DNA of 64,000 nt, from assembly GCA_964643545.1 (NCBI GenBank), contig CAZXTE010000001.1, forward strand, positions 19,101-83,100. Reading direction: 5' to 3'. Position 1 is the stretch's first letter. Every line of letters starts with the position of its first letter. The DNA comes from an uncultured Candidatus Saccharibacteria bacterium (GTDB taxonomy: Bacteria; Patescibacteriota; Saccharimonadia; Saccharimonadales; AWTP1-31). Shown here one piece after another: positions 33,282 through 53,031 of the stretch. Position numbers and translations under genes: made by a program. The notes under the pieces are model-generated. The model saw only the letters and a program-made list of their open reading frames with translations, was not told the origin of the DNA and did not search any database.

Positions 33282-34355
33282 GTGATGGCAATCGTTAGTC
33301 TGCAACTAGAAAACTTTCGTACATACTACCGGGATAGTTTCGAATTCTCGGAAGGGGTTAGTATTATTGTTGGTCCAAATGCCAGCGGTAAAACCAATCT
33401 TCTGGAAGCTATACTACTGCTCTGTGAAGGCCAATCGTTTCGCGCCAAAGATCACGAACTTATTAGCCACGAAAAAGACTATGCCCGAATTGAAGGTTTG
33501 GTGGGTATAGATAAGCGCATTGTTTTGATAGAGCACGATGGGATAGAGCGAAGCACAAAAACACACCAGATAAACACCCAAAACCTAAAACGTTTACCAC
33601 CAGCAAAACGAGTGCCGGTGGTGCTGTTCGAGCCGGAAATTTTACAGCTTTTCCAGGGTGGACCCGAAAAACGAAGAGAGTATATAGATAGTCTGATTAG
33701 CCGGACTACCCCAGGATTCAACACAATACTGCGTCAGTACAGGCGGGTCTTAAGCCAACGAAACGCGTTGCTAAAAAGGCAGCAAGCACCAAAGCAGGAA
33801 GAGTTCTTTGCCTGGGATGTCCGACTAAGTGAATTGGGTGGTCAGATTGCCACTGCGCGCAATCAGCTCATCGACAATCTCAACAGCTCAATAAATGAGG
33901 AGTATCAGAAGATAGCTAGCAAGAACAATAATGTGAGCCTTGAGTATCTCTCTAAAATATCGTCATTGTCGTATAACACCAAAATGCTCCACATGCTCGA
34001 GCAGGTATTCCAAACCGATCGGGAACGGGGGTATACAAGTGTCGGGCCTCACAGAGACGACTTGCAAGTGCTTTTTGATGGTAAAGATGCGAAACAGGTA
34101 GCCTCCCGCGGCGAGATGAGATCATTGGTGTTAACACTAAAGATACTTGAGCTAAAGATCGTAGAAGAGGCAGCCCAAAAGCAACCAATACTACTACTCG
34201 ACGATGTGTTTAGCGAACTTGATGGTGCTCGCCGCAAGGCCCTGACAGAATCAATACAACAATACCAAACCTTTATTACGACCACAGACGCAGACCTAAT
34301 CGTGAAGTATTTTATTGGAGCCTGCGAAATAATCCCCACTAACAGAGCAGTCTAA
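33282..34355 (+). CDS. recF: DNA replication and repair protein RecF
   Basis: Walker A GPNASGKTN and the SMC-like signature LSGGE-equivalent region are present, with a Walker B LLLDDV. It sits in the dnaA-dnaN-recF synteny. Confidence 0.85.
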   Translation: MMAIVSLQLENFRTYYRDSFEFSEGVSIIVGPNASGKTNLLEAILLLCEGQSFRAKDHELISHEKDYARIEGLVGIDKRIVLIEHDGIERSTKTHQINTQNLKRLPPAKRVPVVLFEPEILQLFQGGPEKRREYIDSLISRTTPGFNTILRQYRRVLSQRNALLKRQQAPKQEEFFAWDVRLSELGGQIATARNQLIDNLNSSINEEYQKIASKNNNVSLEYLSKISSLSYNTKMLHMLEQVFQTDRERGYTSVGPHRDDLQVLFDGKDAKQVASRGEMRSLVLTLKILELKIVEEAAQKQPILLLDDVFSELDGARRKALTESIQQYQTFITTTDADLIVKYFIGACEIIPTNRAV

Positions 34356-34987
34356 CGGTTGTTTATATTCCGTATGACTGACTCGGGAACTTTTGGAAAC
34401 TCTTTGATGTACAGAATGATCGTTGGACCTGCGGCAATTGACCAGGTGTTACCACTCTTCTTTAGAACAACCAACAAGATATCATCTTGTTCTGGGTCTA
34501 GCGGGAGGAGCTTCCCGGCATACCAGTCACCTCGCAGATAAAGCTTCCCATCGGAAATAGTGTATTTTGAGATATCATCGAAGTCGCTACGTATAACAGA
34601 CTCCACTGCAGACTTTTGAGGAACGAGCATTTCTTGCAAACGACTGTCGCTATACGAAAGTTCGGGGGTTTGAACGGTAGTTTTAGAGCTAATATTCAGT
34701 TGCTTGGATTCTGTTTTATACACACCACCACTAAAGACTGCGTTGTAATATCCTTTGGAGACTCTGACCGTTGTTTTCTCCTGAGTACGTACGATCTCTT
34801 TGGTGCTGGCTGGGTAGTTGGTGCCAGACTGGGTTAGTGTAATGGTTGTCCCTTGCTCTGGGATCAGAGTGACGCGCTTAAGGCCAAAGAAATATCGAAA
34901 ACCAAACCAGGCAACAAGCCCAAAAACCAACACAATAGCACCGAACGTTACCAGGCGCTTAATTTGAATTCGGGGTGGCTCTTCCAT
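34352..34987 (-). CDS. bitopic membrane protein (N-terminal TM, ~180-aa external domain), candidate VirB8-like T4SS subunit
   Basis: A single N-terminal TM (LVTFGAIVLVFGLVAWFGF) is followed by a soluble domain. It is the last gene of the long minus-strand T4SS-like operon. The VirB8 assignment rests on topology only. Confidence 0.4.
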   Translation of the reverse strand: MEEPPRIQIKRLVTFGAIVLVFGLVAWFGFRYFFGLKRVTLIPEQGTTITLTQSGTNYPASTKEIVRTQEKTTVRVSKGYYNAVFSGGVYKTESKQLNISSKTTVQTPELSYSDSRLQEMLVPQKSAVESVIRSDFDDISKYTISDGKLYLRGDWYAGKLLPLDPEQDDILLVVLKKSGNTWSIAAGPTIILYIKEFPKVPESVIRNINNR

Positions 34988-34988
34988 G

Positions 34989-35387
34989 TTAGTCTCCTGA
35001 CTGAAGGTCTCTAAATATTATTTCCAAATCACTAGGGTCATAACCTTGGGAGCGTATCCAGGTTAGTGCTTCTTGCCTGGCCTGTGGATCGGGGGCTTTA
35101 ATGAGAAGCGCTACCGAATCGTTACTGTCGGGTGAGACCAATGACTTCCCGTAATCTATACGGAAGTAGAGGCCGAGTGCAGGGAGTTTATCTACGATGC
35201 TGCTTTTTGCACGGACTGCCGCATCTTTTTCTTGGTAAGACGTACCACCTGCTCTTTCTTTTTCTTGGGTGCTTTTTGTATTGTTTGTTTGGGTCCTTGT
35301 CGTCACCCCAAGAATAAGTAGCCCGAACATGACGATGCCAATAAGTACGGCTATGACAATGATTTTGCTGCGTGGGTTTTCCTGCAT
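34989..35387 (-). CDS. small bitopic membrane protein
   Basis: 132 aa with an N-terminal TM (IIVIAVLIGIVMFGLLILGV). It sits in the operon 1 nt from its neighbour. Confidence 0.45.
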   Translation of the reverse strand: MQENPRSKIIVIAVLIGIVMFGLLILGVTTRTQTNNTKSTQEKERAGGTSYQEKDAAVRAKSSIVDKLPALGLYFRIDYGKSLVSPDSNDSVALLIKAPDPQARQEALTWIRSQGYDPSDLEIIFRDLQSGD

Positions 35388-35400: not shown

Positions 35401-37863
35401 TTATTTAATTCTCGCTACCGAGAAGTGATGGCCACGATCTTCCAGGTAGGCGTTACCAGCTTGTGGCGCCTGGGAGCCGAGTGAAGCCTGGCGCATGTTA
35501 TACGTGCCTCCCTGTGTCCCGACGTAGATGAATGTGTGTCCCTGGTCACCCGCTGCATAGATCAGTATGTCACCCGGCAACAGCTTGCTTGTGTCGTTTA
35601 TATCGTCAAAAACGGTGTACTTTTCGGGATGACTTCGGAGATACTCAAGTTGTGTTCCGGTGTCGACTTTCGGGTAACTCGTGTCCACCCCGCTACTGAG
35701 CATAACCGTAGCCACAAACCCACCACAGTCAGTTACGTCGGGTGTCGGATTGAATTGTTTCTTGGTATCGAGGAATTTTTGTGTTGCCGTTGCCCCATGG
35801 CCTTTGTCCGGCCACGCGAGGCTTATTGCGGTAGCCACAACATCACCCGCAACAGCAGCATTCCCCCCGGCATCAGGAGACCCTGTGCAGGTACCTGCAC
35901 TAGACCCACCACCACCCCCAACATAGTCTGCACCAATTGCAACCTTGTCGTAGTCACCCTCAGTGTCGCCAGGCCAAGCGATTTGTGGGGCGCCCGGTTT
36001 CTCATCGAGGCCGCCTAAATAGGCAAAGATAGCTCCCGCCCCCATGCGTCCGCTGTTGTCCAAGCCGTAATTACCGTATCCATAGGCGGCAGAGCCCAGA
36101 TATGCACTCCAGGTATTGAGCCATTCGTTGGCCCCAAAAGTTCCATCCTGAATGGCTGCAATAACCTCGGCACCAGTCTTCTGTGGGTTTCTTCTTGTTG
36201 CATGAAGGATAAGAACCCAGGTCGAGTAGTCGATATCTTGCACATTAGACCCATAACCACGTCTAGCTGGGGCACGTCCAGGGACTTGCTCGGGAGTATC
36301 AAAGAATCCGGGCACGCCCACATCGGCGGAATGCCACTTGTACTGCTTGCCGCCCAACTCAGCAGCAGTCGGAAGCTTCCGGCCATTAATCATAGATTGT
36401 TCTGGGTTCGAACTGCCTTCACGCCAGTGCGTTGCTGCTAGTGCCTGCCACGGCACGCCCCAACGCGCCCCAATAGACTTGTAGACAGGGATCTCCCTCA
36501 CGATATCACTTTTTATAAGTGCATCGAGTTTTGACTCTAACCCCTTGCCTTTAATCATTACATTATCGGGGTAGGTCTTGTAGCTGGCGTCAGCGGGTGT
36601 CCCTGGGTTACCGCCACCCCCGCCAGGAGCTGGCGCCCCGGGTTGGCGGATTGCATTAATACGATCCAAAGACTGCTGGATGCGCTGATTCGTTATTTTT
36701 CCTGCCTTATAGTCGGATTCAAGCCGGTCAAGCACCTTCCCAACCGATGATTCATTCACAAAAACAGCCATGTCTGCGCCTGCCGCGATCGCCATAGACG
36801 TTGCCTCCTCTACGCCGTATTTAGACTTAATGGCTTCCATGGTGCCTATGTCGTCTGTCATTGCGACACCGTTAAAGCCGTATTTATCGCGCAATAGTTT
36901 ATAGGTCTCGGGGCTCAAACTCGTTGGTATGCCACCAGTTGTTAGTCCGGGCACATTAAGGTGGCCCAGCATAACAGCAGACCTCGGGTTCTTTAGTAGT
37001 TTTTCGTAAGGCTTTAAATCCCTACCCTCCAGAGTTGCTAAGTCACTGGTTGTCACAACCTGTTTGTGCGAATCGCCATTGGCATAACCATGACCTGGGA
37101 AGTGCTTAAACACGGGCGTAAGGTTGCCTTGGCGGAGTCCTTCGGCAAACGCGCCAGACTTTTTTTCTACAACCGCAGGATCTTTCGAGAATGCCCTGTC
37201 CAAGGGGCTAATAACGGCAGAGCCACCATCGAGGTCTGCCACAGGCGCAAAATCCATGGTTAGTCCAACGGCTGCAAGCTTGTCCGCTTGGCCCTTCGCA
37301 ATGCTCTGAACTTCTGTGTCTGTTTTCGTACCCATTTCCCGAGCACTGGGCACAACGCCGAGCGGACGAAAGCGCTGTACTTTACCGCCTTCTTCGTCGG
37401 CAGCCACCAACATGGGTACAGGACCGGCTTTGAACTTATCGATCCACGTTTTATCTTTCTGCTCAAATTGTCGTCCCATCAAGAAGACTCCCCCCACATG
37501 GCTATCAATCAAGGCTTGAGCTTCTGACTCATTTGTCACAGAGACCATCAACAGTTGGGCGAGCTTCCCGCGGATGCCCCACTCAGCTGGAATTTCATAG
37601 CTGGCGCCAGTTGTTGGGCCTGTTGTTTCGCACTTCTCTTTGGCGTAGTTTGTCTTGTGGTGTTCCGTGTTTAGGAGGATGTGGTACAGATCGTCCTCGG
37701 GTATTTTTGCAGCCATTCCAAGTGGGATGATTGCTTGGAAATACAGCATGGTGAGAATGAACGACGCGCAAAAGAGGCGGAACAGGTGCTTTTTCTTCAC
37801 TATAGACATAGACATAGGCATGGTGTTATTAGCTCCCAGTATGAGACCAATGCCATGGCTCAT
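35401..37863 (-). CDS. secreted multi-domain peptidoglycan hydrolase: GH3 beta-N-acetylhexosaminidase (NagZ-like) plus C-terminal CHAP/NlpC-P60-like domain
   Basis: The KHFPGHGYANGDSH motif is a GH3 hallmark. A Gly/Pro linker (PGGGGGNPGTP) follows, then a middle domain, then C-terminal Cys (DCGGFVATVM) and His (GHTFIYVG) papain-like motifs. It has an N-terminal signal anchor. The real start may be an internal Met at 37821, 37815 or 37809, which would remove the 35-nt overlap. Confidence 0.7.
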   Translation of the reverse strand: MSHGIGLILGANNTMPMSMSIVKKKHLFRLFCASFILTMLYFQAIIPLGMAAKIPEDDLYHILLNTEHHKTNYAKEKCETTGPTTGASYEIPAEWGIRGKLAQLLMVSVTNESEAQALIDSHVGGVFLMGRQFEQKDKTWIDKFKAGPVPMLVAADEEGGKVQRFRPLGVVPSAREMGTKTDTEVQSIAKGQADKLAAVGLTMDFAPVADLDGGSAVISPLDRAFSKDPAVVEKKSGAFAEGLRQGNLTPVFKHFPGHGYANGDSHKQVVTTSDLATLEGRDLKPYEKLLKNPRSAVMLGHLNVPGLTTGGIPTSLSPETYKLLRDKYGFNGVAMTDDIGTMEAIKSKYGVEEATSMAIAAGADMAVFVNESSVGKVLDRLESDYKAGKITNQRIQQSLDRINAIRQPGAPAPGGGGGNPGTPADASYKTYPDNVMIKGKGLESKLDALIKSDIVREIPVYKSIGARWGVPWQALAATHWREGSSNPEQSMINGRKLPTAAELGGKQYKWHSADVGVPGFFDTPEQVPGRAPARRGYGSNVQDIDYSTWVLILHATRRNPQKTGAEVIAAIQDGTFGANEWLNTWSAYLGSAAYGYGNYGLDNSGRMGAGAIFAYLGGLDEKPGAPQIAWPGDTEGDYDKVAIGADYVGGGGGSSAGTCTGSPDAGGNAAVAGDVVATAISLAWPDKGHGATATQKFLDTKKQFNPTPDVTDCGGFVATVMLSSGVDTSYPKVDTGTQLEYLRSHPEKYTVFDDINDTSKLLPGDILIYAAGDQGHTFIYVGTQGGTYNMRQASLGSQAPQAGNAYLEDRGHHFSVARIK

Positions 37864-40800
37864 TCCAGTACTGCTTTAGATTATACTTTCCGGCGTTATC
37901 TATGAGCCAGTCCCACATCGGCATGCCGGGGGCAACACGAGGGTTGCTGGGGCTAGCTTTCCCACCATTTTTTGTGCCAAACTCCTCAGGGTGACCAACT
38001 CGAGTAAGCGCAAAATCTACGGCATCACCAGACTGATGTCTAGATGTTCCAGGCTTTGCGACATCGGAGTAGACGCCGTTAGGGCACTTATCATCTTTTG
38101 CGCACAGCTCTTGTTGGTGCTTCATGGTGCGAAAACTACTGGAGGCTTTGGGTGAGACGCCATCGCTCTTCATGGCGTTAAACATGTTCACCCAATCATT
38201 TGATTTGTCTGCTGCCACGAGTACGTTACCATCTGCCCCATTTACGTAATATTGACTACGCGGATTACTCTCCTCGCTTGAACTTGGGAAGCCAAGGATC
38301 GCACACAGGGTTATCTTCTTTAGAACGCCACCTTCATACCCATCGGCAAGCCCCACGTTCTTGGTGCCACTTGCACAGGTTCCGTCGCCCGTACCTCCCG
38401 TAGAGGCGGGGGGTGGTCCAAGACTCGCCACAAGAAAGTCGCTCTTTGCCAGGTATCCTGCAGCAGTATGGTGAATTTTATCTGGCGCAAACGGATACTT
38501 AGCTGGATTTTTAGCCACCTCGGCACGCCAGTCAATGGGTGTATATTTCAGGGCAGCCGCCTGGCTCGAAACTGCCGCCGCGACAGCATCGTAATTGGAA
38601 ATTTGGGTTTTTGCATTCATCCAGAATATCTTCGCCGAGGGGTTGTATTCGTGGATTTTGTCGACCATGAGTTTTATTTTGCTCGCGAACTGGGGGCTGT
38701 CTGGTCCTGGGTTTGTGCCCAGCATGACCGCTATTGTCCCGGCACGGCTAACTTCGTTTCTATCGAGGTCGATCTTTTCTAGAGATCGGTCAACGTCTAT
38801 ACCGTCGGTTGCCTGGACCTTGGTAACTTCCCACCCAGCAGTTTGCAGCTTGTTCGTTAATGAGCCTAAGTCTTTCATGCCGTTTGTCAACGAGTCGCCA
38901 ACGACGTAGACTGCATTATTGCCACCCCCACTATTTGAACCTCCGCCCCCGCTGGTGGTTTCAGATTCATAATCTTCCGGGTCGAGCACATCAGTTGTAT
39001 ATCGGCCACCAGCTGCCGCCACAGCCTTCTTATTTAGCAAGCAAGGGTTTTCCTTGGTGTGCACGTCGGTGCCCGTCTCCTTGTCCTCTATAAGCGTACC
39101 TGCAAATTCACCGCGCCCATTCGCCCAGTCTTTATCCATCTTTTCACAGACGGCGTCGGTAAGCGTGTCTGGGTCAACATCAAGTGCTGACGAATTCTTT
39201 GGAAAGCCATATTGGACGACACCAAATGGGTCAGGCTTTGCATCTGCTGCAAAGGTCTTTTTGGTGGCAAGTAAACTGCCAAAACTTTTTGACAGGCTTG
39301 TGAATGGATTTGCGAGAAGACCGGTGACGCCTGTATTGGCGGTTCTAGTCACACTGCTGGGTGTAGCCATCGCCATTTGGCTGACAAGTGATTTTGGACT
39401 CTCTGTGCTGAACATACGAGCAAAGAATGGTTGACGTTGGAATTCCTCGTTGCGCTGATTCTCTTGGTCGGCGCGAATCTCGGCTACCTGGGCGTCGGTG
39501 AGGCGTATGCCCCCCAGGCCATAGTGTGCATCATTATTCCCTGCTACATCGGCACCGCCTGCGAGCATATCGAATGTGCGGGCCCCGCTCATGTCTGCAG
39601 ACACTGGTGACGGGATTAGCCACTTCGCAATTGTTTCGAATATCTTGCCGATTTGTTCCTCAATCATCTTCTTTAGGTCAGCGTATTGAGGAAAGATCTT
39701 GCTAATTGCTGCCTCGACAGCACCTACGCCCAGATCAATGAGCTTATTGATCAAGTTAAGGATTTGTCCGATTGTGGCGTTCCATGCATCTGCCGTCTGC
39801 CCGAGCAGACTAAGTGGGGGTTGATTAAAGATGTCAGATATTTTCTGGATGACCCCATTGGTAAGCAGACTTTCCTCTGGGCAAATAAGCTTACCGGTGT
39901 CTGGCTTATTCTTATCGTCACATGTGTATTTTGGCTCTGACGCAGTGCTGCCCGTTTCTGCTGCGTATGCTTTTTGCGGCGACAGGACATCCAAAAAGGA
40001 GCTTTTTTGTATTGGTTCGCCTAGGATGTCCCCGTAGAGTGGTGCTAATTCAGCGGGTTGATTTTTGTGGTCTTTATCACCGGCGCTGTCACCCACACCA
40101 TTCGTCATGCTACCGAGCAACTCGACGTTACAATGCATGCCTTTGCACTCGTCTGCAGTTGTTCTATACAGCATGTAGGTTGCCACCATTTGCGTGCCAA
40201 TAATTTCGTATTTCCAGCGTTTCAATGCCGGCCCAGCTGACTTAGCTTTCGCGGTAATTCTGGCTGCTAGGTCAATCCAGCCAATAACAGGCAAGCCTTT
40301 CGAGGCGGCTGACCCTGCAGCCTCTCCGGCAATCTTCGCAACAACCTCTTCAACAATAAAAGCAGTTAAGCTCTTGTCTGCGAGTTTAATTGTCTTCTCA
40401 ACAATTTTTTCTACGGTCTCCTCGGTGAATTCTTTGCCAGACTTCTCAAGTGCCTCACGAATTTGTTTCTCTATTTTGTCTCTCCTCACTCCGTCATTGT
40501 CAGCTTCACCCTTCGATGCTTTGTCCGAATCACAGGCAGGATCGATGATACACTCTAATACAAAACCCAGATGTTGAGTGTAGGGTATGATGACCCGGCG
40601 ATTAATGACGAGCCTGAAGGCTCCCTTCTTTTTGTCTTTCCAGTCGTCTATGCGATCTTTTGATTTGCACGCAAAAACACACCTCCGGATGCCGTATTTT
40701 TCTTCCAGAAGTCGCCCCACCTTGAATCGGTACATAACACGCTTCCACAATGTCTCTTCTTTGAAAGACTCACGTACTTTTATGCGAACATCATTTCTGC

Positions 40801-41575
40801 CACCTGCTGCCTTCCACATACCCTGGTTTGGGTCTTTTCGCCAGCCTTCTACGTCAAGGTTACTCACTTTGTCATTGACCTTAATCTTGTAGTCGCTTGC
40901 CCCGCCACTAAAACCATCCCGGGTTATTTCTATGCCGTATTTCTCGGATAGTTTATTCTCGAGGCGTGCATCGCGCCAACCCCTAAACAAGCGGGCAGCC
41001 GGCGAATCGCCTTCTAGATTGGCAATACAATTTTTGTCTATTGTCCCAGACGAACGACTACAGGTTCCCTTGCCTAGGTTTGGGATCACCTTATCTCGGA
41101 GGTACTTGTCTAGTAGCCTTTCTGCTCTCGTTTGCACAGCACTCTCCGAGCTGGCAAAAAAGCGACTCTGCAAATTTTCCATGATGTGGTTAATCTTCAA
41201 GGGCAAAAACGCCATGAATGCGGCCAGAATCAAACCGCCAATGCCACCCCCAATAAGCCCAGCACCAATCAATTTCTTTTTTTTGCCGCCCGTGGCACCT
41301 GCTAAAAATTTCTTAAGGCTTTGAAGGTCTTTTACATCCTCAGTATTGTAGCCGCTCCCAACCCTATCGCCGAGCGCATCTGCTTCTCTTGATGCGGCTC
41401 CGCCAACACCATCCGCTGCCTCTCCCTGAGCCTCTTGCTCTGAGATATTTGGTGTTTCTGTCGAAGCGTCACCACTGGCCTCGTTTGTTAGTTTGGGGTC
41501 CTCATCTCCGCCCCCCACACTTCCTGATGCTCTTCGAGGCGAGTCATCGTCATATATTTTTGATGGTTCACCCAT
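37829..41575 (-). CDS. giant membrane-anchored multi-domain protein: SGNH/GDSL hydrolase plus C-terminal M15 (VanY/LAS-type) peptidase domain
   Basis: 1248 aa with an N-terminal TM (GAGLIGGGIGGLILAAFMAFL). There are a GDSL block VYVVGDSLTNG and a downstream SGNH-like block. The C-terminal SRHQSGDAVD ... EPWHW motifs match Zn D-Ala-D-Ala carboxypeptidase-like (VanY / peptidase M15) signatures. Confidence 0.65.
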   Translation of the reverse strand: MGEPSKIYDDDSPRRASGSVGGGDEDPKLTNEASGDASTETPNISEQEAQGEAADGVGGAASREADALGDRVGSGYNTEDVKDLQSLKKFLAGATGGKKKKLIGAGLIGGGIGGLILAAFMAFLPLKINHIMENLQSRFFASSESAVQTRAERLLDKYLRDKVIPNLGKGTCSRSSGTIDKNCIANLEGDSPAARLFRGWRDARLENKLSEKYGIEITRDGFSGGASDYKIKVNDKVSNLDVEGWRKDPNQGMWKAAGGRNDVRIKVRESFKEETLWKRVMYRFKVGRLLEEKYGIRRCVFACKSKDRIDDWKDKKKGAFRLVINRRVIIPYTQHLGFVLECIIDPACDSDKASKGEADNDGVRRDKIEKQIREALEKSGKEFTEETVEKIVEKTIKLADKSLTAFIVEEVVAKIAGEAAGSAASKGLPVIGWIDLAARITAKAKSAGPALKRWKYEIIGTQMVATYMLYRTTADECKGMHCNVELLGSMTNGVGDSAGDKDHKNQPAELAPLYGDILGEPIQKSSFLDVLSPQKAYAAETGSTASEPKYTCDDKNKPDTGKLICPEESLLTNGVIQKISDIFNQPPLSLLGQTADAWNATIGQILNLINKLIDLGVGAVEAAISKIFPQYADLKKMIEEQIGKIFETIAKWLIPSPVSADMSGARTFDMLAGGADVAGNNDAHYGLGGIRLTDAQVAEIRADQENQRNEEFQRQPFFARMFSTESPKSLVSQMAMATPSSVTRTANTGVTGLLANPFTSLSKSFGSLLATKKTFAADAKPDPFGVVQYGFPKNSSALDVDPDTLTDAVCEKMDKDWANGRGEFAGTLIEDKETGTDVHTKENPCLLNKKAVAAAGGRYTTDVLDPEDYESETTSGGGGSNSGGGNNAVYVVGDSLTNGMKDLGSLTNKLQTAGWEVTKVQATDGIDVDRSLEKIDLDRNEVSRAGTIAVMLGTNPGPDSPQFASKIKLMVDKIHEYNPSAKIFWMNAKTQISNYDAVAAAVSSQAAALKYTPIDWRAEVAKNPAKYPFAPDKIHHTAAGYLAKSDFLVASLGPPPASTGGTGDGTCASGTKNVGLADGYEGGVLKKITLCAILGFPSSSEESNPRSQYYVNGADGNVLVAADKSNDWVNMFNAMKSDGVSPKASSSFRTMKHQQELCAKDDKCPNGVYSDVAKPGTSRHQSGDAVDFALTRVGHPEEFGTKNGGKASPSNPRVAPGMPMWDWLIDNAGKYNLKQYWNEPWHWSHTGS

Positions 41576-41601: not shown

Positions 41602-43515
41602 TTAAACTCCAGGCGTCAATCTATTGTTAAGGTCAATGGTGCCTTGTGGCTGATTGATTTCGCCCTGTCTCATTTGTTGAACCTGCTGCGGATTCGTTGT
41701 GATAAGCCCGGTTTCTGTAGGGCTGGCTGTAATCTGGATATGAACGTGGCTTTGCCCAGCGAAGAACAGGCCCTGGCCAACAGGAAATTGACTGAGGCGC
41801 TTCTTCTCCTCGCTGGTAAGCTTGAATATATCAGCCAATACATCAACGGCAGACGTCGACTGCTTCAGCAGTATCTGCATGCTTGCGTTGGCAACGATCG
41901 CGCGACCCATGCGTGATCCCATAAAGTCCTCCACATCCTGGCTAATGGTGGTAATGCCGAGGTTGTACTTTCGAGCACGTTTTGCAAGCGAAAACAAGAA
42001 GTTAGCAGAGTCTTCGTACTTCATAAGCTGCCAAGCTTCATCGACAATCAGAATGCGACGTTTTACGTCACTCTTCGTTTTGTTCCAGATGTAGTTCAGT
42101 ACAATGTACATAGCAACGGGGCGTAATTCGTCCTCGAGGTCACGTATGTTAAACACAACCAGGGGATTATTGACGTTAGTATTCGATTGCTGACTAAAAA
42201 TGCCCGCAAATGTACCGGTGGTATATTTTCTTAGACGCTGTGCGAGCTGTGGTCCTGTGCCGCCCATATGTAGCAGCGTGTCGTACAGATCGGCAATTGT
42301 TGGCGGAACCCCATTGTGCGTGAGTGGATCGTTGGTTATGCCGGCCTTGGCATATGTTTCGATGAGTGCTGCGTCGAGGTCGGATTCTTCTACGGGGGAT
42401 AAAGCAGGAACAGCGGCTACACCGCCACTTGCTGCCATTTGTGCTTGTGCGCCACCCATCATCAGTCGGAAGAGCCCGTGCAAAGTAATAATATTACTAC
42501 GCAAGGCGTTGTCGGCTTCTTCGGCATCTACAACCTTCGGAAGGTCAAAGGGGTTAATGCGTGTTGCTGAGCTCAAACTTAGTCGTACATATGCACCACC
42601 GACTGCATCACACATTCGCTGGTATTCGTTTTCTGGGTCAATAATAAAGATTTCGGTGCCGAACATAAGACTACGCAACGCTTCTAGCTTAACGGTAAAC
42701 GACTTACCAGCACCCGACTTGGCAAAGACAACTGAGTTGCCATTTTCTAGGCTAAACCGATCAAATATAACAAGACCAGAGTTGTGCATGTTGATGCCGT
42801 ACAATATGCCATTCTCTTGGCTCAGGTCGGCCGAAGTAAACGGGAAGCTCGTGCTAATCGCGCCCGTGTTCATATTGCGACGAATCTGAAGCTGGTCCAT
42901 AAATTGCGGTATGCAACTATTAAAGCCCTGCTCTTGCTGTGAGGTAGCTGCTTTGGAGTAGGTTAGCTGTTGGCCCAGCATAGACTCGATCTTGTGGGTT
43001 ACAAACTCCAGTTCGTCCATGTCGCCTGCGTAGACAGTAAAATATAATCCAAAACGGAAGAAACGTTCCTCGCCAACCTGTAACTTATCGCGCATTTCCT
43101 CAGCATCTGTAATGGCGGCCTGCTTGCCTGGGTCTCGCACGCGTCCCTTCTCTGCGTCAATCTGTAGACCGGCCTCTAACTGCGTTACTTTTTTGCGCAA
43201 GTTCTCCAAAACCACTTGGCTTTCCACGGGGTATATATACATAGAAAGATCCATAACCTCGTCGATGTTTACCAGGCTACTTGCCCAGCCTGTAAAAACC
43301 TGGCGGGGGTATCCGTAGACATAAAATGTTCTGGCTATCCTGGTCCCAATATGGAACAGACTATTCTCGAACACAAGTGAACTGGGGGCGATAAAGTCAC
43401 GAAGTGCAGTGATGCCCTTTTGGAACGCTGCGCTTACCTCTTGCTCTTCTCGTGCTCGTTGCGCTTGTGCGATTGCAACCGGGTCAACGGGTTGGTTCTT
43501 TCTGCCAAAAGCCAT
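41602..43515 (-). CDS. virB4: type IV secretion system ATPase, VirB4/TraC/CagE family (C-terminal ATPase module)
   Basis: Walker A FAKSGAGKSF and Walker B ILIVDEAWQL (DEAW is characteristic of VirB4) are present, with an ISQDVEDF motif C region. 637 aa is short for VirB4, which suggests the N-terminal domain is encoded separately. Confidence 0.75.
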   Translation of the reverse strand: MAFGRKNQPVDPVAIAQAQRAREEQEVSAAFQKGITALRDFIAPSSLVFENSLFHIGTRIARTFYVYGYPRQVFTGWASSLVNIDEVMDLSMYIYPVESQVVLENLRKKVTQLEAGLQIDAEKGRVRDPGKQAAITDAEEMRDKLQVGEERFFRFGLYFTVYAGDMDELEFVTHKIESMLGQQLTYSKAATSQQEQGFNSCIPQFMDQLQIRRNMNTGAISTSFPFTSADLSQENGILYGINMHNSGLVIFDRFSLENGNSVVFAKSGAGKSFTVKLEALRSLMFGTEIFIIDPENEYQRMCDAVGGAYVRLSLSSATRINPFDLPKVVDAEEADNALRSNIITLHGLFRLMMGGAQAQMAASGGVAAVPALSPVEESDLDAALIETYAKAGITNDPLTHNGVPPTIADLYDTLLHMGGTGPQLAQRLRKYTTGTFAGIFSQQSNTNVNNPLVVFNIRDLEDELRPVAMYIVLNYIWNKTKSDVKRRILIVDEAWQLMKYEDSANFLFSLAKRARKYNLGITTISQDVEDFMGSRMGRAIVANASMQILLKQSTSAVDVLADIFKLTSEEKKRLSQFPVGQGLFFAGQSHVHIQITASPTETGLITTNPQQVQQMRQGEINQPQGTIDLNNRLTPGV

Positions 43516-44387
43516 TACAGTAGCTCCCTGTCTAAGTTTGGTTGTGGAGCCTGTCCTTGCCCTCTTGTGACAACAGGTGTTGAAAGATCACCGAAGTTAC
43601 GAAGTTGCTGCCTTGTTGCAGTATCTGGGTTGTAGGCATCGTAGTAGAGCTCGATAAGTTCCTGGGTATCGAGTGGTAACCCTTGGATGCCGCACTGCAT
43701 CAATCCAGAGAGTACAGCTTGTACGCGGTTTCTCAGCTCGTCTTTTGCCTTGGCGAGATCAGTCTCATTGATAACCACTTGCTTCTCAGGCTTCTTGCTG
43801 AACAGTGCCCCAATGCCACCAACAAGTTTCTTGCTTTCATCCAGTGTTTTCTGCAGGTCTGCTACGGGGAAATAGGGTATGACCACGTAAAAACGTTTAT
43901 CCATAATGTTGGTTTGTTGGCTCAACTGATCCATGAAATTTATGTAATCGTCCATGAGTAGCGCCAACAGCATGTTGTCGTGCTCGCTACGAATTTTGAC
44001 AAGCTTATCCAAGTAAGGTCCAAGGTCTACCTTCTCGGAACGGATCATAATTTGTATAGGGAAATAGAGAGAATTTAGAAAACCCTGGTAGCTAAACTCA
44101 ACAGCCTCTCGTTCTTGCGGGCTCATTAGGTCAAAGTTAATAGATTTTGTCATGATGACGGAACGGAAAGAGCCATCGTTCATGATCACAATACCATCTC
44201 GGATTTCCGCTATTTGCAGGGCATTTTGTGTGCTGTTTGGGTTTGATGGTGGTGCAAGAGGTTGTGGTTTGGCCCCAGCGGTACGAGGTGCATTAAAGCT
44301 AGCAGGTGGCGGTCCAGCGGGGGTTGGGTATGCCATCCCGGGCTGGTTTTGTACGGGGTTCATCTGAGGATTTGATGCCGGATTCAT
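43515..44387 (-). CDS. protein translationally coupled to virB4, possible detached VirB4 N-terminal domain
   Basis: 290 aa. Its stop TAA overlaps the virB4 ATG by 1 nt. The N-terminus is Pro/Asn-rich and low-complexity. The rest (IAEIRDGIVIMNDGSFRSVIMTK...) is a folded domain reminiscent of the VirB4/TraC N-terminal region. Confidence 0.5.
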   Translation of the reverse strand: MNPASNPQMNPVQNQPGMAYPTPAGPPPASFNAPRTAGAKPQPLAPPSNPNSTQNALQIAEIRDGIVIMNDGSFRSVIMTKSINFDLMSPQEREAVEFSYQGFLNSLYFPIQIMIRSEKVDLGPYLDKLVKIRSEHDNMLLALLMDDYINFMDQLSQQTNIMDKRFYVVIPYFPVADLQKTLDESKKLVGGIGALFSKKPEKQVVINETDLAKAKDELRNRVQAVLSGLMQCGIQGLPLDTQELIELYYDAYNPDTATRQQLRNFGDLSTPVVTRGQGQAPQPNLDRELL

Positions 44388-44427
44388 GCTACCTGTCTAC
44401 CCACTCCCTTGGTGCTCAATTGATAAT

Positions 44428-45471
44428 TTAACGCAGCGATATTATTACTTCACCATCGTCAGTCTTTGATTGACTGGGGTGGTTCTTCTCTGCCTCTCGT
44501 GCCAAACTATCAATCGGGCGATTATTCTCGATTGCTAGGTTCAGTATATCAGGCGCAGGTGCTGCTGTCACCCCTGGTGATTTTGGTTGTGCTTGCGGGG
44601 GCTGACTCGAAAGCGGCTGGAGCTTTCTGTGGTTACGAAACGACTCATCTGGGTGGCTTTTTTGCTCGTGTATCTTGTTTAGTAGCGCCTGCTCATTTGC
44701 GTCTGGTATTGCTGGCTTGGCAAAAGTCGGAGCAGGTGTTGACCCTCCCTGTGATTGCACGAACCAGCCTCCTGGGGGTGCGATATTGGTGCTCGGTGCT
44801 TGTTGCTCCCGAGCAACTTCACGCATGTGAGAGACTGCCTCTTGTTGGTGCACTTCCTTCGACTGGGCAATTTGGGCATCGAGCCGAGCGGCCGTTTGAT
44901 TATCAAAAATATCATCCTCTGCTCGAACATCTATGGTCGAGACCTGCTTTGGCAATTCCTCGACCGCTACAAGCCTGTCCGAGCTTGGCGCCATAGCTAA
45001 CGAACCGTAAGAGGGCTGTGCAAATAAGTTCACGTCCACGTTCTTAATAACCCAACCACGGCTGTCTATGGTTGTTGCCAGCGCCTTAAGGCGGCTTTTG
45101 ACTTCGTTCTGGCTAAGGTTATCAGAGAAGTTCTGTTCAATATGTTTTGGAACAGTTATCTTGACCAGTTCCTTCATGCCCGACTGGTCCCAAATGCGTT
45201 TACGTGGCTTAAAGTAAAAACGGAGCTTAGCGAGGAGCCATACCTCAGTGGGCTGATCTCGACCCCACGGGAACGCCAAAAACCCAAAGACAATCTCTAT
45301 AGGCAACAAAATAACCGCCACAAACCATACATTGTGTGTAAGGCCCAAGAAACTTATGTAAAGACTGGTTACAACAATCGCCCCAAAGATAAATTGTTTC
45401 AGCGTTAAGGGGCCAAGGAACTTATCCTCTGCCTCAATATCCTGGAGAACTTTATACGTAGCCACTAGCAT
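44428..45471 (-). CDS. membrane protein with N-terminal TM hairpin, candidate VirB3-like T4SS subunit with extended Pro/Gln-rich tail
   Basis: Two adjacent N-terminal TM helices (FIFGAIVVTSLYISFLGL / VWFVAVILLPIEIVFGFLAF) sit immediately upstream of virB4. This position and topology are typical of VirB3/PrgI/TcpE. Confidence 0.45.
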   Translation of the reverse strand: MLVATYKVLQDIEAEDKFLGPLTLKQFIFGAIVVTSLYISFLGLTHNVWFVAVILLPIEIVFGFLAFPWGRDQPTEVWLLAKLRFYFKPRKRIWDQSGMKELVKITVPKHIEQNFSDNLSQNEVKSRLKALATTIDSRGWVIKNVDVNLFAQPSYGSLAMAPSSDRLVAVEELPKQVSTIDVRAEDDIFDNQTAARLDAQIAQSKEVHQQEAVSHMREVAREQQAPSTNIAPPGGWFVQSQGGSTPAPTFAKPAIPDANEQALLNKIHEQKSHPDESFRNHRKLQPLSSQPPQAQPKSPGVTAAPAPDILNLAIENNRPIDSLAREAEKNHPSQSKTDDGEVIISLR

Positions 45472-45523: not shown

Positions 45524-46495
45524 CTAAAGAGCTGGAGGTCCGGCAGGTGGTGCTGGAGGTGCAGCGGGCGGAGGCGGCAGTGCAGCTATGCGGGCAGCCT
45601 CTGCCGTAGCAGCTGCCTGGGCATCCAGATTGGCAGTTGCAAGTGCGGCAGTAGTTTGTATCTCGTTTAAGACCGCCCGCTCTGCATCGTATCTACCGAC
45701 GGCTGCATCAAGCAGGTTCACTCTCGTTTCTTTGGGGGTAGAAGCGCGTTTGTATTGAGGGCTAAATTCACCCAGAATTTTAAAAGCATCAAATCCACCA
45801 CCCTCCTTGTCGGGTCGCCTAGGGCGTTCCCGGGCAATGGGCATGTTGCTCTCGAATGGACCAAGGTCAGGCGTTGGGGAATAGGAGGTATCCTCTCCTA
45901 GGAGTGCTGGCCCCCGTGATGGAACGTGGCCTTCAAAGAATTCAAGCCCTGTCCCCACAATCCTACCAAGCGCTCCTGGATCGTCAGAGACGTGTTTTCT
46001 GCGACCCGTTGGGATGACTTCACGCCTAATGCTAAACACGGCAAATATTGGAGAGCCGCCGTCTCGGGCAACTTCCACCGGTGTGCTATAGGTTGTTTCA
46101 ACGCGTCCTATCGGCTGCTCTTCTCGCGAAATTCTGCCAGGTATGCGACTTCGCCGGTCTATACCAGGCCCTCTTGTTCGCAGGGCGTTTTGTCGCATGC
46201 GATCGGGCTCGCTTCTTTGGGTACGCTCTGCATCAACACCAATTCGCTGGATTAAGTCATCAACGTCTGCGGCTACTCGCTCTTGTTCTCCGTAGAATTC
46301 AAGCACAGCTTCCGCACCCCTGTGAATGTCCTGTGTTGCCTCAACGTGCGCTTCCCTTGTAGCCTCTTCATCATCACGTCGATCGTGTCTGGCCGTCTGT
46401 AATCTACGACGGAGGTCTTCTTGGTAGGCTGCTTGTTCTGGGCTAGGGATATCGCTCATAGTGTATTTTTGTTTTAATAGTGAGTAACAAATCAA
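45524..46495 (-). CDS. hypothetical protein with Pro/Ala-rich N-terminus, T4SS-operon member
   Basis: 323 aa. The N-terminus is low-complexity (PPPPAAPPAPPAGPPAL). It lies between the virB6-like gene and the virB3-like gene in the same operon. Confidence 0.45.
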   Translation of the reverse strand: MICYSLLKQKYTMSDIPSPEQAAYQEDLRRRLQTARHDRRDDEEATREAHVEATQDIHRGAEAVLEFYGEQERVAADVDDLIQRIGVDAERTQRSEPDRMRQNALRTRGPGIDRRSRIPGRISREEQPIGRVETTYSTPVEVARDGGSPIFAVFSIRREVIPTGRRKHVSDDPGALGRIVGTGLEFFEGHVPSRGPALLGEDTSYSPTPDLGPFESNMPIARERPRRPDKEGGGFDAFKILGEFSPQYKRASTPKETRVNLLDAAVGRYDAERAVLNEIQTTAALATANLDAQAAATAEAARIAALPPPPAAPPAPPAGPPAL

Positions 46496-46547
46496 CAGTA
46501 CACTATTTTGGTTAATAAGTCAACAAGGTTGTGTAAAGTCATCTATA

Positions 46548-49500
46548 CTATTGGCGCTTGGTGGGGTCGTTGCCAACATCTATTGGGATATCCTCTCCAG
46601 GAAGTGGGGTACCGGACCGTCCCGCTGGACCACCCGGTACAGTTGAGCGTGTTGGAGTACCGGCTATGGGGTCTGCTCTGCCTGTGGTGCCTACCTCGCG
46701 GCTCCACTCGACGGGGTCAGTTGCGGCGTGCCCTGTAGCTGGGTCGATCCTAGAACTAGTTTCAAATAATGCGTAAAAGTTCTCCATTTCTTCTTTGGTG
46801 CGTCCGCTAGCACCACCACCAACTTGGGTGATCATTCTTCCAGTTGGGGTACCGCTTGCCGTCATTTCCGGTACTGTCTGGCCGATGCTGCGTGCAATTC
46901 GAGCACCACGTTGGATAACTTCATTTGCGGCTGCCTGTTCATCGGCTGTTGCAGCTGGGTTAGCGAGTGTGGTACGAGCACGAACGACTTCTTCTGACAT
47001 TGTAGTCCAGGTGTCCGGATGCTGTTGTGTCATCTGGTATGTGCCTTGGCGTTCATCGATCTCTTGCATAAGGGCTGTGGCATTCATGGTTAGTCCATTC
47101 TCGCCGTATTGGTAATGCTTCCACTCGCGGTCGGTATTCTGGTTGGCGAAGGCCGCACCCGTCCATATGCCACCCATTTGGCCTGTAGTAGCATTTTCGG
47201 CAGCACCACCACGTGTTGCTAGGCGACCAACGTTCTGGTACAGGTAATCATGTTGTTCTTGGGTGGTGGCTTTGCGCATTTCGTAACTAAGAGCGTACTG
47301 TGCAGCATCTTGGTCCCCACGCCAGCGATTGTGTGCCGCATCCACGGCACTTTCGTCGACCCATTTCCCACCAAGTGTTTTATATTGACGTGTATTATTG
47401 TGGATTCGAACATGACCATTCCCGTCCGGGTCGTAGAGGTTGCCGGCTATAGCATCGGCCTCCGCCTTGTTTACAGTCAGTGCTCGTACCTCAGTATCAT
47501 CCCCGGTAGAGGTCAGCTGCTCCATTCGTTTTTGTGTTTCGCCACGCATTGCTGTAATACCCTCCTCGAGGTTATAGCCACCAACACGCCCCTGCAAGAA
47601 TCGCGCGCTTCTGCCAAACCGACCGCCCCTGCTGGCGTAGGTGCCAAGGGCACGGTATTGACGATCTCGTGCTGTTAGCATGCGGCGCTGCACATCTTGT
47701 TTGGCCTGTTCTTTGCGACTTTTGGTGAGCCCTCCAACCTTTGCGGTGCCCCCAGCAACGGCTGCATAGAGTTTGCCCATGGCTCCCCCGGCAAACTTGA
47801 AAGCAAAAGGAATCAGGAATAATGGGATAATTTGCAGCGAGAATGCGATGAGACCCGCAAGTCCCGCGGAAACAGGGTTGGGACTTCCGGAAGTCCCTAC
47901 GGCGTCATTTGCTACGAGTATTGTTGCGCTCAATATGCTGGCAGTCGAGAATATAACAACAACAATTGGGAACACTAGTAATGTCTCGAATAATAAGTTC
48001 CACCACTTTTTAAAATATTGTTCGGTATTTGGGAGGCAGTACAAAGCAAATGCAACGGGGCTGACCATAATGAGGGCTAATATAATGCCGCGCCGAATAA
48101 CGAGCGTTGCAAAGACCGCAAGGATGGCTAACATTGCCGGAACGACAATGCCGATAAGAATAAAAACTGCCGCCTTCCCCAGGAACCCTGCCGTTAAAAA
48201 CCCACCCAGGAACCCTGCAATACCTGCAGCCCCAAGAAACAATGCGAGAACAGTAGTTAGTACTGCGCCAAGTTGCGCCCCTGGGCTGGGAGCTGCATGA
48301 AGCAAATCGGCCACTGGGGCCATCATGAGCTGGGCAATTCCCTTGCCAAGAACGTTGGTGATGTCCACGAGCAAAGCCACAATGTAGACAGATAAGTTTA
48401 TGAGTATGGCCGCTATTAATATGCGTGGCATCACTTTCTTGGCTGTATACGCATCGATAATGCCTCCACCGATAGTTTGCCCAAAAACAATGACCAGCAT
48501 GGCTATGATGAGGAATATATTGCCATAAACGCGAAATGCCGACCACGCCTTGAAGCTCGGGTCTGATGGGTCGGTAGAAACAGGGCTGGTATATAAAAGA
48601 GGGGATACAAGATTCTTAAAAAGCCAGTCAGTTGTTTCGGCAAACATATTAAAGACAGGGCAAAGTATCCAGTTTAGGCTAAAACCAGATGCTTCGCAGG
48701 TGGCGTTTGTGTCGTCCGATGTGCCGTCCGTGTTCCCACCCCCAGACGGGTTACTGCCCCCACTATTATCTCCCTGATTTCCTTTAGAATCTTCAATTTG
48801 TTTCTGGTAATCGCCATCAAGATCCTTCATGAGCTTAGATAGGTCTGGGGTAAAGCCGTCATCTTCCAAAATATGGAAACATTTTTTATTCTTGTCGCCG
48901 CCACACTGCTGAGAGTTACTGTTCGTATCTAGATTATAGACGAGACTACTCCCGACCATCTGCACTGCGTAATTATCTGCCGTGATTGCGGCACTGGACC
49001 ATGTTACGTCATCTTGGTCTACTTCAAAGTCTTGATTGATGGTGAGTGCAATTGTTATCTCTTTGCCATCCTTGTCCTTTATGACGGATGCTGCACCACT
49101 ATTGTTGTTGCCAGGCAGCTTAATGAGACGAAAGCGAAAATTACCCGACTTTTTTAGAAAGGCGAGCTTGTCTGCCTGGGCACTAGCTTGTATGTAGTCT
49201 TTATCGCCAGCTTTAATTTTAAAGTGGACGCTTACTTTTCTTTGATTAAGTGGGCTGATATCGATACGTGACGTACATGTCTTGTCTCGATACGATTTGT
49301 CGGCAAACTTTTGGTGTTCCTCCCAGACCCCTGAGCTCTTAAGCTTTGAGTAGAGCTTTTCGGCTTGATCTGCATAAAACCTCTTGGTGCTCGCGTCGCC
49401 GCCATTACGAATGTCCCACAAGTGGTCCTGATCTTTGGGGTTGCCTTTCTGGTAGGTAAATGTGCCAGGAAAGCACAGGTCCATGGTAAGCCGTGCATCT

Positions 49501-49931: not shown

Positions 49932-50450
49932 ATGAACGAAAACAATAATCAAACACCAGCAGAAACCGTAGACTACAGTTTCATAACGGATCAACCCACG
50001 GCATCTCCAAAAAAGAAACCTAATAAAATGATCGCCATATTTCTCGGGTTGACGTTGCTCGTTATTTTGGCGGCGGGCTTACTGTTGTTAGTACAGTCCA
50101 AAAAAAGCACAACCAAAAGTAACATCGACGCAGAACAGGTCGTCCGACAACTTTTTGTAGATATGGGGAACGGGGATAATATCGCCGCCCTAAACGCATT
50201 TACGGGGCCAAATAAGCCGGATGCTGCGTACCTTGAGGGCTACTTAATAGCTCCGCTGAAGAATGATTACTTGGTAGATTCATGCACATTTACCTCTTCA
50301 GAAACAAAAGTAGCTAGCTATTACCAGGTCAAGGCATCTTGCCCACAAAAGCAAGCAAGTAACATCAGAATTCGTGTAGACTTTACAGTTATGAGACAAG
50401 AGCTATCATCGAAAATTGTTGCATACTCTCTTGGCGGGGTAGATACGTGA
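49932..50450 (+). CDS. bitopic membrane protein, divergent from the T4SS operon
   Basis: 172 aa with a TM at residues ~33-54. It overlaps the next gene by 4 nt. Confidence 0.5.
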   Translation: MNENNNQTPAETVDYSFITDQPTASPKKKPNKMIAIFLGLTLLVILAAGLLLLVQSKKSTTKSNIDAEQVVRQLFVDMGNGDNIAALNAFTGPNKPDAAYLEGYLIAPLKNDYLVDSCTFTSSETKVASYYQVKASCPQKQASNIRIRVDFTVMRQELSSKIVAYSLGGVDT

Positions 50451-52140: not shown

Positions 52141-52142
52141 TC

Positions 52143-52550: not shown

Positions 52551-52558
52551 AGGAAAAA

Positions 52559-52969: not shown

Positions 52970-53031
52970 CTGTTGTAACTTCCCTCAAAGTTGTGATATA
53001 AACATAAGTAGCAATATAGAAAGGTAAAAGA

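Follow-up and report, generated by a model that had tools for sequence, protein, structure and literature searches.

What does a membrane-anchored protein with two predicted envelope-cutting domains do inside a type IV secretion system (T4SS) operon of a Saccharibacterium? The question is raised by an open reading frame (ORF) in a 64,000-nucleotide stretch of DNA from an uncultured Candidatus Saccharibacteria bacterium (GenBank assembly GCA_964643545.1, contig CAZXTE010000001.1, positions 19,101 to 83,100), referred to below as the window. The ORF, hereafter the target, begins with ATG, encodes 1248 amino acids (aa) followed by a stop codon and lies at 37829..41575 on the minus strand. Coordinates are window positions, and those of the target and its operon are on the minus strand unless stated otherwise. 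The product is a bitopic, T4SS-associated membrane protein in which a long extracytoplasmic arm is followed by two catalytic heads, an SGNH/GDSL domain and a VanY-type zinc peptidase. Among its relatives the heads are exchangeable accessories, and the arm is the part that defines the family. The target genuinely belongs to the SGNH and VanY/M15B superfamilies, and also to the unnamed family of SEML1_0007-like proteins. Public data contain a protein identical to it, in a Candidatus Saccharibacteria metagenome-assembled genome (MAG). A near-identical member of its cluster, HMS49824.1 from a Candidatus Saccharibacteria MAG, is annotated as a D-Ala-D-Ala carboxypeptidase family protein. An intact orthologue (L007), 94% identical and of the same architecture, was also found.

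Topology of the protein

A first-pass annotation, made from the sequence without database searches, had described a 1248-aa ORF with an N-terminal transmembrane (TM) segment, and this was borne out by the ORF listing and the hydropathy profile. The TM segment is a single signal anchor at residues 101-127 (41195..41275), with a hydropathy maximum of 2.06 on the Kyte-Doolittle scale and a long helix in the AlphaFold 2 (AF2) model. Over the whole 1248 aa the profile contains no second segment that reaches TM level. In the family alignment G104, P125 and K127 of this region are nearly invariant. The KKKK stretch on the N side of the anchor indicates an N-in, C-out topology. All 16 cysteines are C-terminal to the anchor and form eight close pairs. 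The extracytoplasmic location and pairing of these residues likewise point to an N-in/C-out anchor, carrying a disulfide-stabilised ectodomain.

The cytoplasmic tail (residues 1-100; 41276..41575) is acidic and of low complexity, and the modelled fragment opens with a predicted local distance difference test score (pLDDT) below 50. Near its N-terminus is the motif (V/I)YD(D/E), present in the target as IYDDD at residues 7-11 (window 41543-41557, minus strand). Column conservation over the N-termini of 49 homologues gave Y8 in 33/46 and D9 in 41/46. The tail also carries GxGY at residues 73-76, about 25 residues ahead of the TM segment. Judged from these sequence patterns, (V/I)YD(D/E) and GxGY are candidate docking peptides for a cytoplasmic partner in the T4SS. 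The first motif is kept in 40 or more relatives, inside an acidic tail that is otherwise variable.

The ratio of nonsynonymous to synonymous differences (pN/pS), calculated against the 94% identical orthologue, was 0.022 for the SGNH head, 0.049 for the arm, 0.134 for the VanY head and, at its highest, 0.18 for the linker. The low values in all segments indicate that every part of the protein is maintained by purifying selection. No second copy of the arm is present within the 64-kb window; the target is single-copy and fixed in the T4SS operon.

The conserved arm

Between the anchor and the GDSL block the first-pass annotation had placed a spacer of about 450 aa without recognisable motifs. 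The distance is in fact about 760 aa (residues 128-885), and in place of a featureless spacer there is a conserved ectodomain of about 740 aa common to hundreds of Saccharibacterial proteins. This arm (residues 128-865; 38981..41194) is extracytoplasmic and forms the conserved core of the family, which ends at a PCLL motif (844-847). In the AlphaFold model (pLDDT 76.8; predicted template modelling score, pTM, 0.84) it consists of alpha-helices nearly throughout, apart from one small beta-sheet. It holds 12 cysteines in six close pairs, and ten of these cysteines are invariant or nearly so.

A homology search retrieved 48 other clusters, with 26-41% identity to the target over the full-length alignment and with invariant cysteine and aromatic columns. 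The part common to these homologues is the N-terminal 60-70% of the target, not the enzymatic domains. When 1.84 billion representatives were searched with a profile, 2460, 1650 and 751 clusters were obtained at E 1e-3, 1e-10 and 1e-30, respectively. Of the 26 species-level genome matches, most have Saccharibacteria or Saccharimonadales in their titles; the others are labelled generically or, in three cases, with names of other phyla. By these matches the arm family appears to be found almost only in Saccharibacteria.

Searches for relatives of the arm outside this family were negative by fold in the PDB and among the BFVD viral models (best E 0.73 for BFVD), by sequence profile in the PDB, in Pfam, NCBIfam and PHROGs, and in 72,556 plasmids. 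About 70% of the target protein is without annotation or fold relative. The literature search turned up no account of the arm family, its fold or the polymorphism of its heads. Behind the arm lies a Gly/Ser-rich linker (residues 866-885; 38921..38980), which is the junction of head exchange in the relatives; their tails diverge right behind a PEDLQ(E/D)P segment.

The SGNH and VanY heads

The first head is a small SGNH/GDSL esterase domain of about 165 aa (residues 886-1050; 38426..38920), detected by Pfam, a family hidden Markov model (HMM), AF2 and Foldseek. Block I is represented by GDSL at 893-896, with Ser895 as nucleophile, and is kept in the relatives P0052, P0131, P0083 and P0097. Block III is GTNPG at 953-957, in which Asn955 of GTN is the oxyanion residue, and block V is DKIHH at 1032-1036, contributing Asp1032 and His1035 to the triad. 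A candidate for block II is G925 in ATDG, aligned to ATIG of P0052 in the sequence alignment only. The match to Pfam Lipase_GDSL_2 (E 1.6e-7, 32.4 bits, profile positions 1-176 of 178) lies 0.5 bit under the gathering cut-off of 32.9; the SGNH heads of P0131 and P0097 clear the threshold with 49.0 and 40.7 bits. The family HMM, made from SGNH heads among the relatives, matches the target at 3.5e-54. In Foldseek the best match is the C-terminal domain of Staphylococcus aureus OatA (6wn9/6vjp; E 7e-6, TM-score 0.73, probability 1.00), followed by 5ufy (OatA) and then by TesA and other esterases, and many SGNH structures are matched with probability 1.00. The GDSL block noted in the first pass is thus real. 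The accompanying suggestion of an esterase resembling those that act on O-acetylated peptidoglycan is in keeping with the OatA domain being the best match of the model.

An acyltransferase-3 (AT3) domain was not matched in the target by Pfam or NCBIfam, and the protein has a single TM segment. With no AT3 domain to supply acetyl groups, the SGNH head is likelier to be an esterase than an OatA-like transferase, and the latter role is unlikely. The closest relative of the domain, at 49% identity, is the SGNH domain of P0052, an SGNH+M23 protein encoded in another T4SS locus at the position termed slot 2, that is, directly behind the target-family gene. When the two-head region was used as query, only P0052 and P0053 were found as close relatives. 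In two SGNH-only relatives, P0020 and P0041, the block V histidine appears to be replaced by glutamine (AYQTN and GVQPS; alignment A4, columns ~280-320). Going by such alignments, some SGNH heads of relatives may be catalytically inactive binding modules.

The two heads are separated by a Pro/Gly-rich linker, residues 1051-1066 (GPPPASTGGTGDG; 38378..38425), where pLDDT falls below 50 at model residues 199-204. The second head is a VanY/M15B (LAS) zinc peptidase domain (residues 1067-1248; 37832..38377), identified by Pfam, by sequence matches in the PDB (LdcB and VanY) and by Foldseek. Its SxHxxGxAxD motif is SRHQSGDAVD at 1178-1187, with the zinc ligands His1180 and Asp1187, and the ExxH motif is EPWHW at 1239-1243, with the catalytic Glu1239 and the third zinc ligand His1242. 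VanY-type heads of relatives keep E(S/P/A/C)WHW. Pfam VanY (PF02557) was matched with 56.2 bits (cut-off 25) along positions 6-131 of the 132 in the profile, and Foldseek returned VanYB (5hnm/6a6a) and LdcB (4mph/4ox3) with probability 1.00. The head is 40% identical to the stand-alone VanY protein P0053. The VanY/M15 signatures of the first pass, SRHQSGDAVD and EPWHW, are therefore genuine. By sequence, the head may be a D,D-carboxypeptidase, an L,D-carboxypeptidase or an L-Ala-D-Glu endopeptidase.

The AlphaFold model of residues 860-1248 (pLDDT 77.4) has two well-folded domains with a floppy linker between them, and both heads have a complete set of active-site residues. Chance matches to the GDSL and M15 motifs were considered as well and were ruled out by Pfam, the family HMM and Foldseek.

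Exchange of heads among relatives

The end of the arm was set by HMM, and the tails behind it were classified in 179 relatives. This census mixes representatives of 90%-identity and 50%-identity clusters; head classes without a Pfam match were assigned by motif and clustering, and a tail of less than 60 aa was scored as no head. LAS domains with an HxH motif were counted in 57/179 relatives, VanY-type LAS domains in 26, M23/LytM-like domains in 25 + 3 and SGNH domains on their own in 11, while 34/179 (~19%) had no head. GH5, the SGNH+VanY pair and an unassigned cluster, unkA, were found three times each. Two relatives each carried a PF04185 phosphoesterase, a beta-lactamase-like domain with SxxK, or an unknown domain combined with VanY. 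A beta-helix, EEP+M23 and SGNH with another domain were seen once each, and five further tails were other singletons. In P0164 and P0091 a conserved domain of about 220 aa without Pfam match stands ahead of the VanY head, in the place of the target's SGNH domain.

The class of head follows the arm poorly: in only 45/179 cases was it equal to that of the relative with the most similar arm. Arms that are 83-87% identical carry differing heads, as in P0002 (VanY) compared with P0012 and P0008 (HxH), and in P0022 (M23-like) compared with P0023 (HxH). The same is seen at the DNA level in loci L033 and L034, whose identity is 79.5% between PrgI and roughly codon 877 of the target-family gene. Past this codon all similarity is lost over about 3.9 kb, through the head, slot 2 and small ORFs, and it resumes at 77% in recF. 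This hypervariable island (L033 8633-12560; L034 8639-11897) starts exactly at the linker behind the arm and ends at recF. The heads thus behave as cassettes. Since the SGNH domain of the target is closest to that of the slot-2 protein P0052, cassettes also move between the two slots.

The combination of the two head domains had been called uncommon. It is indeed rare, being present in 3/179 relatives (the target, P0131 and P0083), though these three show that it is not unique, and SGNH domains also pair with M23 and with another domain. No two members of the trio are nearest relatives, and identity between their heads is just 27-32%. Recurrence of the pair in three lineages that are not closest to each other suggests that the SGNH+VanY pairing is functionally favoured.

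The T4SS locus and the rest of the window

The first-pass annotation had seen the gene in a T4SS-like operon, and this context is real: a CD1110-type VirB4, a TrsD/TraC-like protein and a PrgI-like protein are encoded upstream, with a PF18895 pilin array beyond. In order of transcription on the minus strand, the operon encodes a 1098-aa VirB6/TrbL_3-like protein, a 323-aa ORF, PrgI, a 290-aa TrsD/TraC-like protein, VirB4, the target, an 820-aa GH3 protein and two small anchored ORFs. The dnaA-dnaN-recF genes lie on the opposite strand, directly past the downstream end. In 7/7 loci (the window, L001, L004, L005, L006, L033 and L034) the target-family gene is found directly after virB4 and beside recF-dnaN-dnaA. 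The locus is the chromosomal MPF-FATA-derived T4SS of Patescibacteria described previously (PMC12102498, PMC10633639). Pfam and NCBIfam scans of the locus found neither a VirD4 coupling protein nor an XVIPCD-like signal.

The VirB4-like ATPase (637 aa; 41602..43515) ends 26 nt ahead of the target and was identified by NCBIfam conju_CD1110 (346.8 bits, cut-off 325) and Pfam P-loop_TraG. Next to it, the region 43515..45471 encodes the 290-aa TrsD/TraC-like protein (43515-44387; NCBIfam TrsD, E 1e-5) and the 347-aa PrgI (VirB3-like; Pfam PrgI, 44 bits). The 290-aa protein is 65-78% identical to its same-position counterparts, which are annotated as PF26593 TraC-like in other loci, and its gene is the most conserved of those compared across loci. 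It matches the N-terminal part of VirB4 models (CD1110 positions 4-118, Mbov_0397 100-250), and the 637-aa VirB4 covers 182-734. Going by these profile matches, VirB4 appears to be split into two genes with abutting reading frames. The 323-aa ORF and the 1098-aa VirB6/TrbL_3-like membrane protein occupy 45524..49844. Neither has a Pfam match of its own; residues 381-693 of the 1098-aa ORF match genes annotated as PF19590 TrbL_3 in L004 and L006. Beyond them a divergent array of six VirB2-like T4SS pilin genes lies on the plus strand (50447..53460). Five match Pfam PF18895 with 27.7-51.2 bits and the first matches weakly (E 0.006). This first pilin ORF, of 328 aa, is far longer than the others, and its PF18895 match is confined to the last 55 residues.

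On the other side of the target, slot 2 is occupied by the 820-aa partner gene (35401..37863), whose start overlaps the 3' end of the target by 35 nt. Its product combines a GH3 NagZ-like beta-N-acetylhexosaminidase domain (97-403), about 270 aa without assignment and a weak NlpC/P60 domain (707-784). Pfam gave 216 bits for Glyco_hydro_3 and E 0.0023 for NLPC_P60; the NCBIfam beta-N-acetylhexosaminidase model scored 162 bits, under its cut-off of 207. Among the loci examined, GH3 occupies slot 2 in this lineage only, and elsewhere the slot holds Phage_lysozyme2, Amidase_3, Glucosaminidase+Amidase_3, CHAP, M23 or SGNH+M23. Two small TM-anchored ORFs of 132 aa and 211 aa (34352..35387) close the operon beside recF and show a weak 26-36% identity to same-position ORFs in L033 and L005. 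On the question of an immunity gene, the gene after the target encodes another hydrolase, and the small ORFs at the end of the operon are conserved, weakly, between loci whose heads differ. In L005 a 77-aa ORF (13352-13585, plus strand) lies between a phosphoesterase-headed family protein and slot 2 and might encode an immunity protein or an inhibitor; the window has no ORF of this kind.

Outside the operon, a YkuD L,D-transpeptidase with a PG_binding_4 domain is encoded at 58970-60439 on the minus strand. L,D-transpeptidases use tetrapeptide donors, which a VanY-type D,D-carboxypeptidase could supply. Upstream of the origin region, envelope-biogenesis genes extend over 5408-29741: YfhO-like (5408-7729), a GT2 glycosyltransferase (17858-19756), a Wzy_C O-antigen-ligase-like protein (24296-25618), an FG-GAP repeat protein (26876-28363) and YidC (28821-29741). 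Pfam matched none of three ORFs in the same region (12707-17853), which are 430-554 aa long.

The counterpart SEML1_0007

The family is already on record, through a positional counterpart, as the essential unnamed gene SEML1_0007 (PMC10633639; PMC12102498). SEML1_0007 of Ca. Southlakia epibionticum ML1 encodes 1113 aa and is annotated as 'hypothetical' (Wang et al. 2023, PMC10633639 Tables S1/S2). Its sole recognised domain is a Hedgehog/DD-peptidase (LAS, DPAM) at 951-1105, and its neighbours are virB4 (SEML1_0008) and SEML1_0006, which encodes a lysozyme/cysteine-proteinase protein (PMC10633639). In transposon sequencing it was scored GD/ES/ES, essential, with insertions falling from 123 in the input to 29, 1 and 1; SEML1_0004/0005, the equivalents of the two small anchored ORFs, were also essential (PMC10633639). 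Essentiality was also noted for the homologues of peptidase and lysozyme that follow virB4 directly; they may take the place of VirB1, and they were not retrieved by VirB1/TrsG/CD419 profiles (PMC12102498). Saccharibacteria are ultrasmall parasites that need the T4SS for life on their hosts. The role of this T4SS, which is essential there, has been called 'completely unknown' (PMC11665869).

The order of genes is the same in both loci: recF, small ORFs, the multi-hydrolase, this protein, virB4, TraC-like, PrgI, VirB6-like and the pilin array. The proteins are similar in size (1113 and 1248 aa), and in SEML1_0007, as in the target, a long N-terminal part (~950 aa, unannotated) is followed by a C-terminal LAS domain. 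They differ in that SEML1_0007 has one LAS head, whereas the target has an SGNH domain inserted ahead of its VanY-type LAS domain. The target is the positional and architectural counterpart of SEML1_0007, and we infer that the two are orthologous.

Proposed function and alternative explanations

The target is probably an envelope-cutting accessory subunit, structural in nature and tethered to the chromosomal, conjugation-derived T4SS. The arm would be held in the T4SS next to VirB4, perhaps docked via the cytoplasmic YDD tail, and would project the heads through and past the epibiont's own wall. The SGNH head would then remove O-acetyl groups from N-acetylmuramic acid (MurNAc), a modification that blocks muramidases, and the VanY head would cleave stem peptides. 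Together with the neighbouring GH3/NlpC-P60 protein, the heads could locally dismantle the peptidoglycan and open a passage for the T4SS pilus or channel. From the pairing of SGNH with VanY, O-acetylated peptidoglycan would be predicted to be attacked in two steps. Cultivated Saccharibacteria have Actinobacteria as hosts, and the host cell wall is favoured here as the main target, a choice to which we give an even chance. It is favoured because the heads swap fast within a hypervariable cassette, and because some heads (GH5, phospholipase-C-like phosphoesterase, EEP and beta-helix) would be pointless against the peptidoglycan of the producer itself.

Several points weigh against this picture. 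The argument for host over self is circumstantial, and the membrane anchor limits the reach of the heads. With 34/179 relatives headless, the essential function may reside in the arm alone. Non-lytic carboxypeptidases are numerous in the VanY family. The SGNH fold does not reveal the substrate, given that TesA, lipases and sialate esterases come close to OatA in score, and the Lipase_GDSL_2 score stays just under its gathering cut-off. The C-terminal model was built from nine sequences and has a pTM of 0.50. An immunity-like gene was not identified in the locus, and the equivalence with SEML1_0007 rests on synteny, length, neighbours and domain layout.

The heads might instead act on the producer's own peptidoglycan and open it for assembly of the T4SS or its pilus, a VirB1/PrgK-type role as played by PrgK, TraG (pIP501), CwlT and TcpG. 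In the pCF10 operon prgK comes after prgJ, and the target follows virB4 in the same manner; it also shares the N-terminal TM anchor with PrgK, and LAS and M23 heads dominate its family. The same replacement of the missing VirB1 has been proposed before (PMC12102498). However, the chemistry of a bacterium's own wall should be stable within a lineage, yet nearly identical arms differ in their heads and the whole region is a replaced cassette. Nor is it obvious what the GH5, phosphoesterase, EEP and beta-helix heads would act on in the producer's own peptidoglycan, and the target has no SLT/lysozyme or CHAP domain. A self-directed role is therefore possible but doubtful. Ordinary wall maturation, in which the VanY head would trim the cell's own pentapeptides to tetrapeptides, for example for the L,D-transpeptidase at 58970-60439, and the T4SS neighbourhood would be coincidental, is highly improbable. 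The YkuD gene is in the window and relatives of LdcB/VanY are housekeeping carboxypeptidases; but such enzymes do not swap catalytic class between close relatives, a 740-aa arm is needless for the task, and all loci examined have the gene in its place behind virB4. Its presence at the T4SS locus whatever the wall chemistry, which would speak against this explanation, has largely been observed already.

Nutrient scavenging overlaps with host-directed cutting: the heads and the GH3 NagZ-like neighbour would harvest amino sugars and amino acids from the host wall, and the link to the T4SS would be one of co-regulation. VanY-type carboxypeptidases release free D-Ala, the neighbouring GH3 domain belongs to a recycling-type family, and Saccharibacteria lack de novo amino-acid synthesis (PMC10633639). 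This explanation seems unlikely to us, since slot 2 holds GH3 in this lineage only and lysozyme, amidase, CHAP or M23 elsewhere, and since the strictly conserved position and the overlapping frames in the T4SS operon suggest a component of the machine; headless members speak against it too. Their persistence is equally hard to reconcile with a released or translocated antibacterial effector, whose ectodomain or heads would be released by cleavage and passed by the T4SS into the envelope of the host, like the peptidoglycan-hydrolase and lipase effectors of the killing T4SS of Xanthomonas and Stenotrophomonas. The layout of conserved N-terminal part, conserved PCLL junction and hypervariable C-terminal enzyme is that of a polymorphic toxin, and the range of heads (peptidase, esterase, phospholipase-like, nuclease/phosphatase-like) recalls effector repertoires. 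Against this, the signal anchor and the conserved cytoplasmic tail point to a resident membrane protein, no adjacent gene was identified as a co-varying immunity protein, the small downstream ORFs keep a weak conservation between loci whose heads differ, and neither a VirD4 coupling protein nor an XVIPCD-like signal was found in the locus. The delivered effector that the first-pass annotation had offered as one option is hence not favoured, and we hold it to be quite improbable.

On the reading of the target as a tethered, host-directed subunit, a further proposal can be made tentatively. The arm, perhaps a previously undescribed fold as judged against the PDB, BFVD, Pfam, NCBIfam, PHROGs and plasmids, might be an extracellular T4SS arm specific to Saccharibacteria. 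Its swappable tips, together with slot 2, might form a host-envelope 'key set' that decides which wall chemotypes can be breached; such a set would comprise peptidoglycan peptidases, de-O-acetylases, glycosidases and lipid or phosphoester hydrolases. If true, the protein would be a host-range determinant analogous to the depolymerases of phage tail fibres, evolving by cassette exchange at a defined linker. The family sits centrally in an essential Saccharibacterial T4SS locus. Its tip turns over quickly as a cassette, in contrast to the conserved arm, VirB4 and TraC-like protein. A testable hypothesis follows, namely that the tips are fitted to the envelopes of the hosts and have a share in host range. 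The interest of the target rests on this family-level pattern, and not on the SGNH+VanY pairing itself.

Comparison with known systems

Taken singly, each head resembles well-known enzymes. The C-terminal domain of OatA (6wn9, 6vjp, 5ufy) is likewise a small extracytoplasmic SGNH fold with a Ser-His-Asp triad. OatA, however, has an AT3 membrane domain of its own, and the target, which is without one, resembles the OatA domain in fold only (14-20% identity). By function, the SGNH head can also be compared with the O-acetyl-peptidoglycan esterase Ape1, another enzyme that handles peptidoglycan O-acetyl groups. In several relatives of the target, SGNH is fused to peptidoglycan peptidases. With the VanY/LdcB family (MEROPS M15B) the second head shares the zinc and catalytic motifs and the fold, at an identity of just 20-25%. 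Unlike these enzymes, it has an extra N-terminal beta-hairpin braced by a disulfide and a 30-residue insert of low confidence (model residues 339-355), and it is fused to a large T4SS arm.

At the level of the whole protein, the target recalls two kinds of system. Polymorphic toxins (Rhs, CDI, LXG) and the killing effectors of T4SS and type VI secretion systems also have a conserved N-terminal part, a junction and exchanged C-terminal enzymes, many of them directed at the envelope. The target differs from them in being membrane-anchored, in having no recognised immunity gene or secretion signal, and in being single-copy within the operon of the machine; its counterpart is essential for growth and not for competition.

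PrgK (pCF10), TraG (pIP501), CwlT (ICEBs1) and TcpG (pCW3) are, like the target, encoded within an MPF-FATA-type T4SS operon beside VirB4. Each is modular, either secreted or anchored by a TM segment, and has two domains that cleave the wall, as the target has two heads; they are needed for T4SS function (PMC12102498). They use SLT/lysozyme or muramidase domains together with CHAP/NlpC-P60 (and LytM) and have no 740-aa helical arm, whereas the target combines SGNH with VanY. An SLT/lysozyme or CHAP domain was not matched in it by Pfam or NCBIfam, so that by catalytic domains it is not a VirB1-like or PrgK-type protein. The system around it also departs from conjugative T4SS: it is without relaxase or coupling protein and serves epibiosis instead of conjugation.

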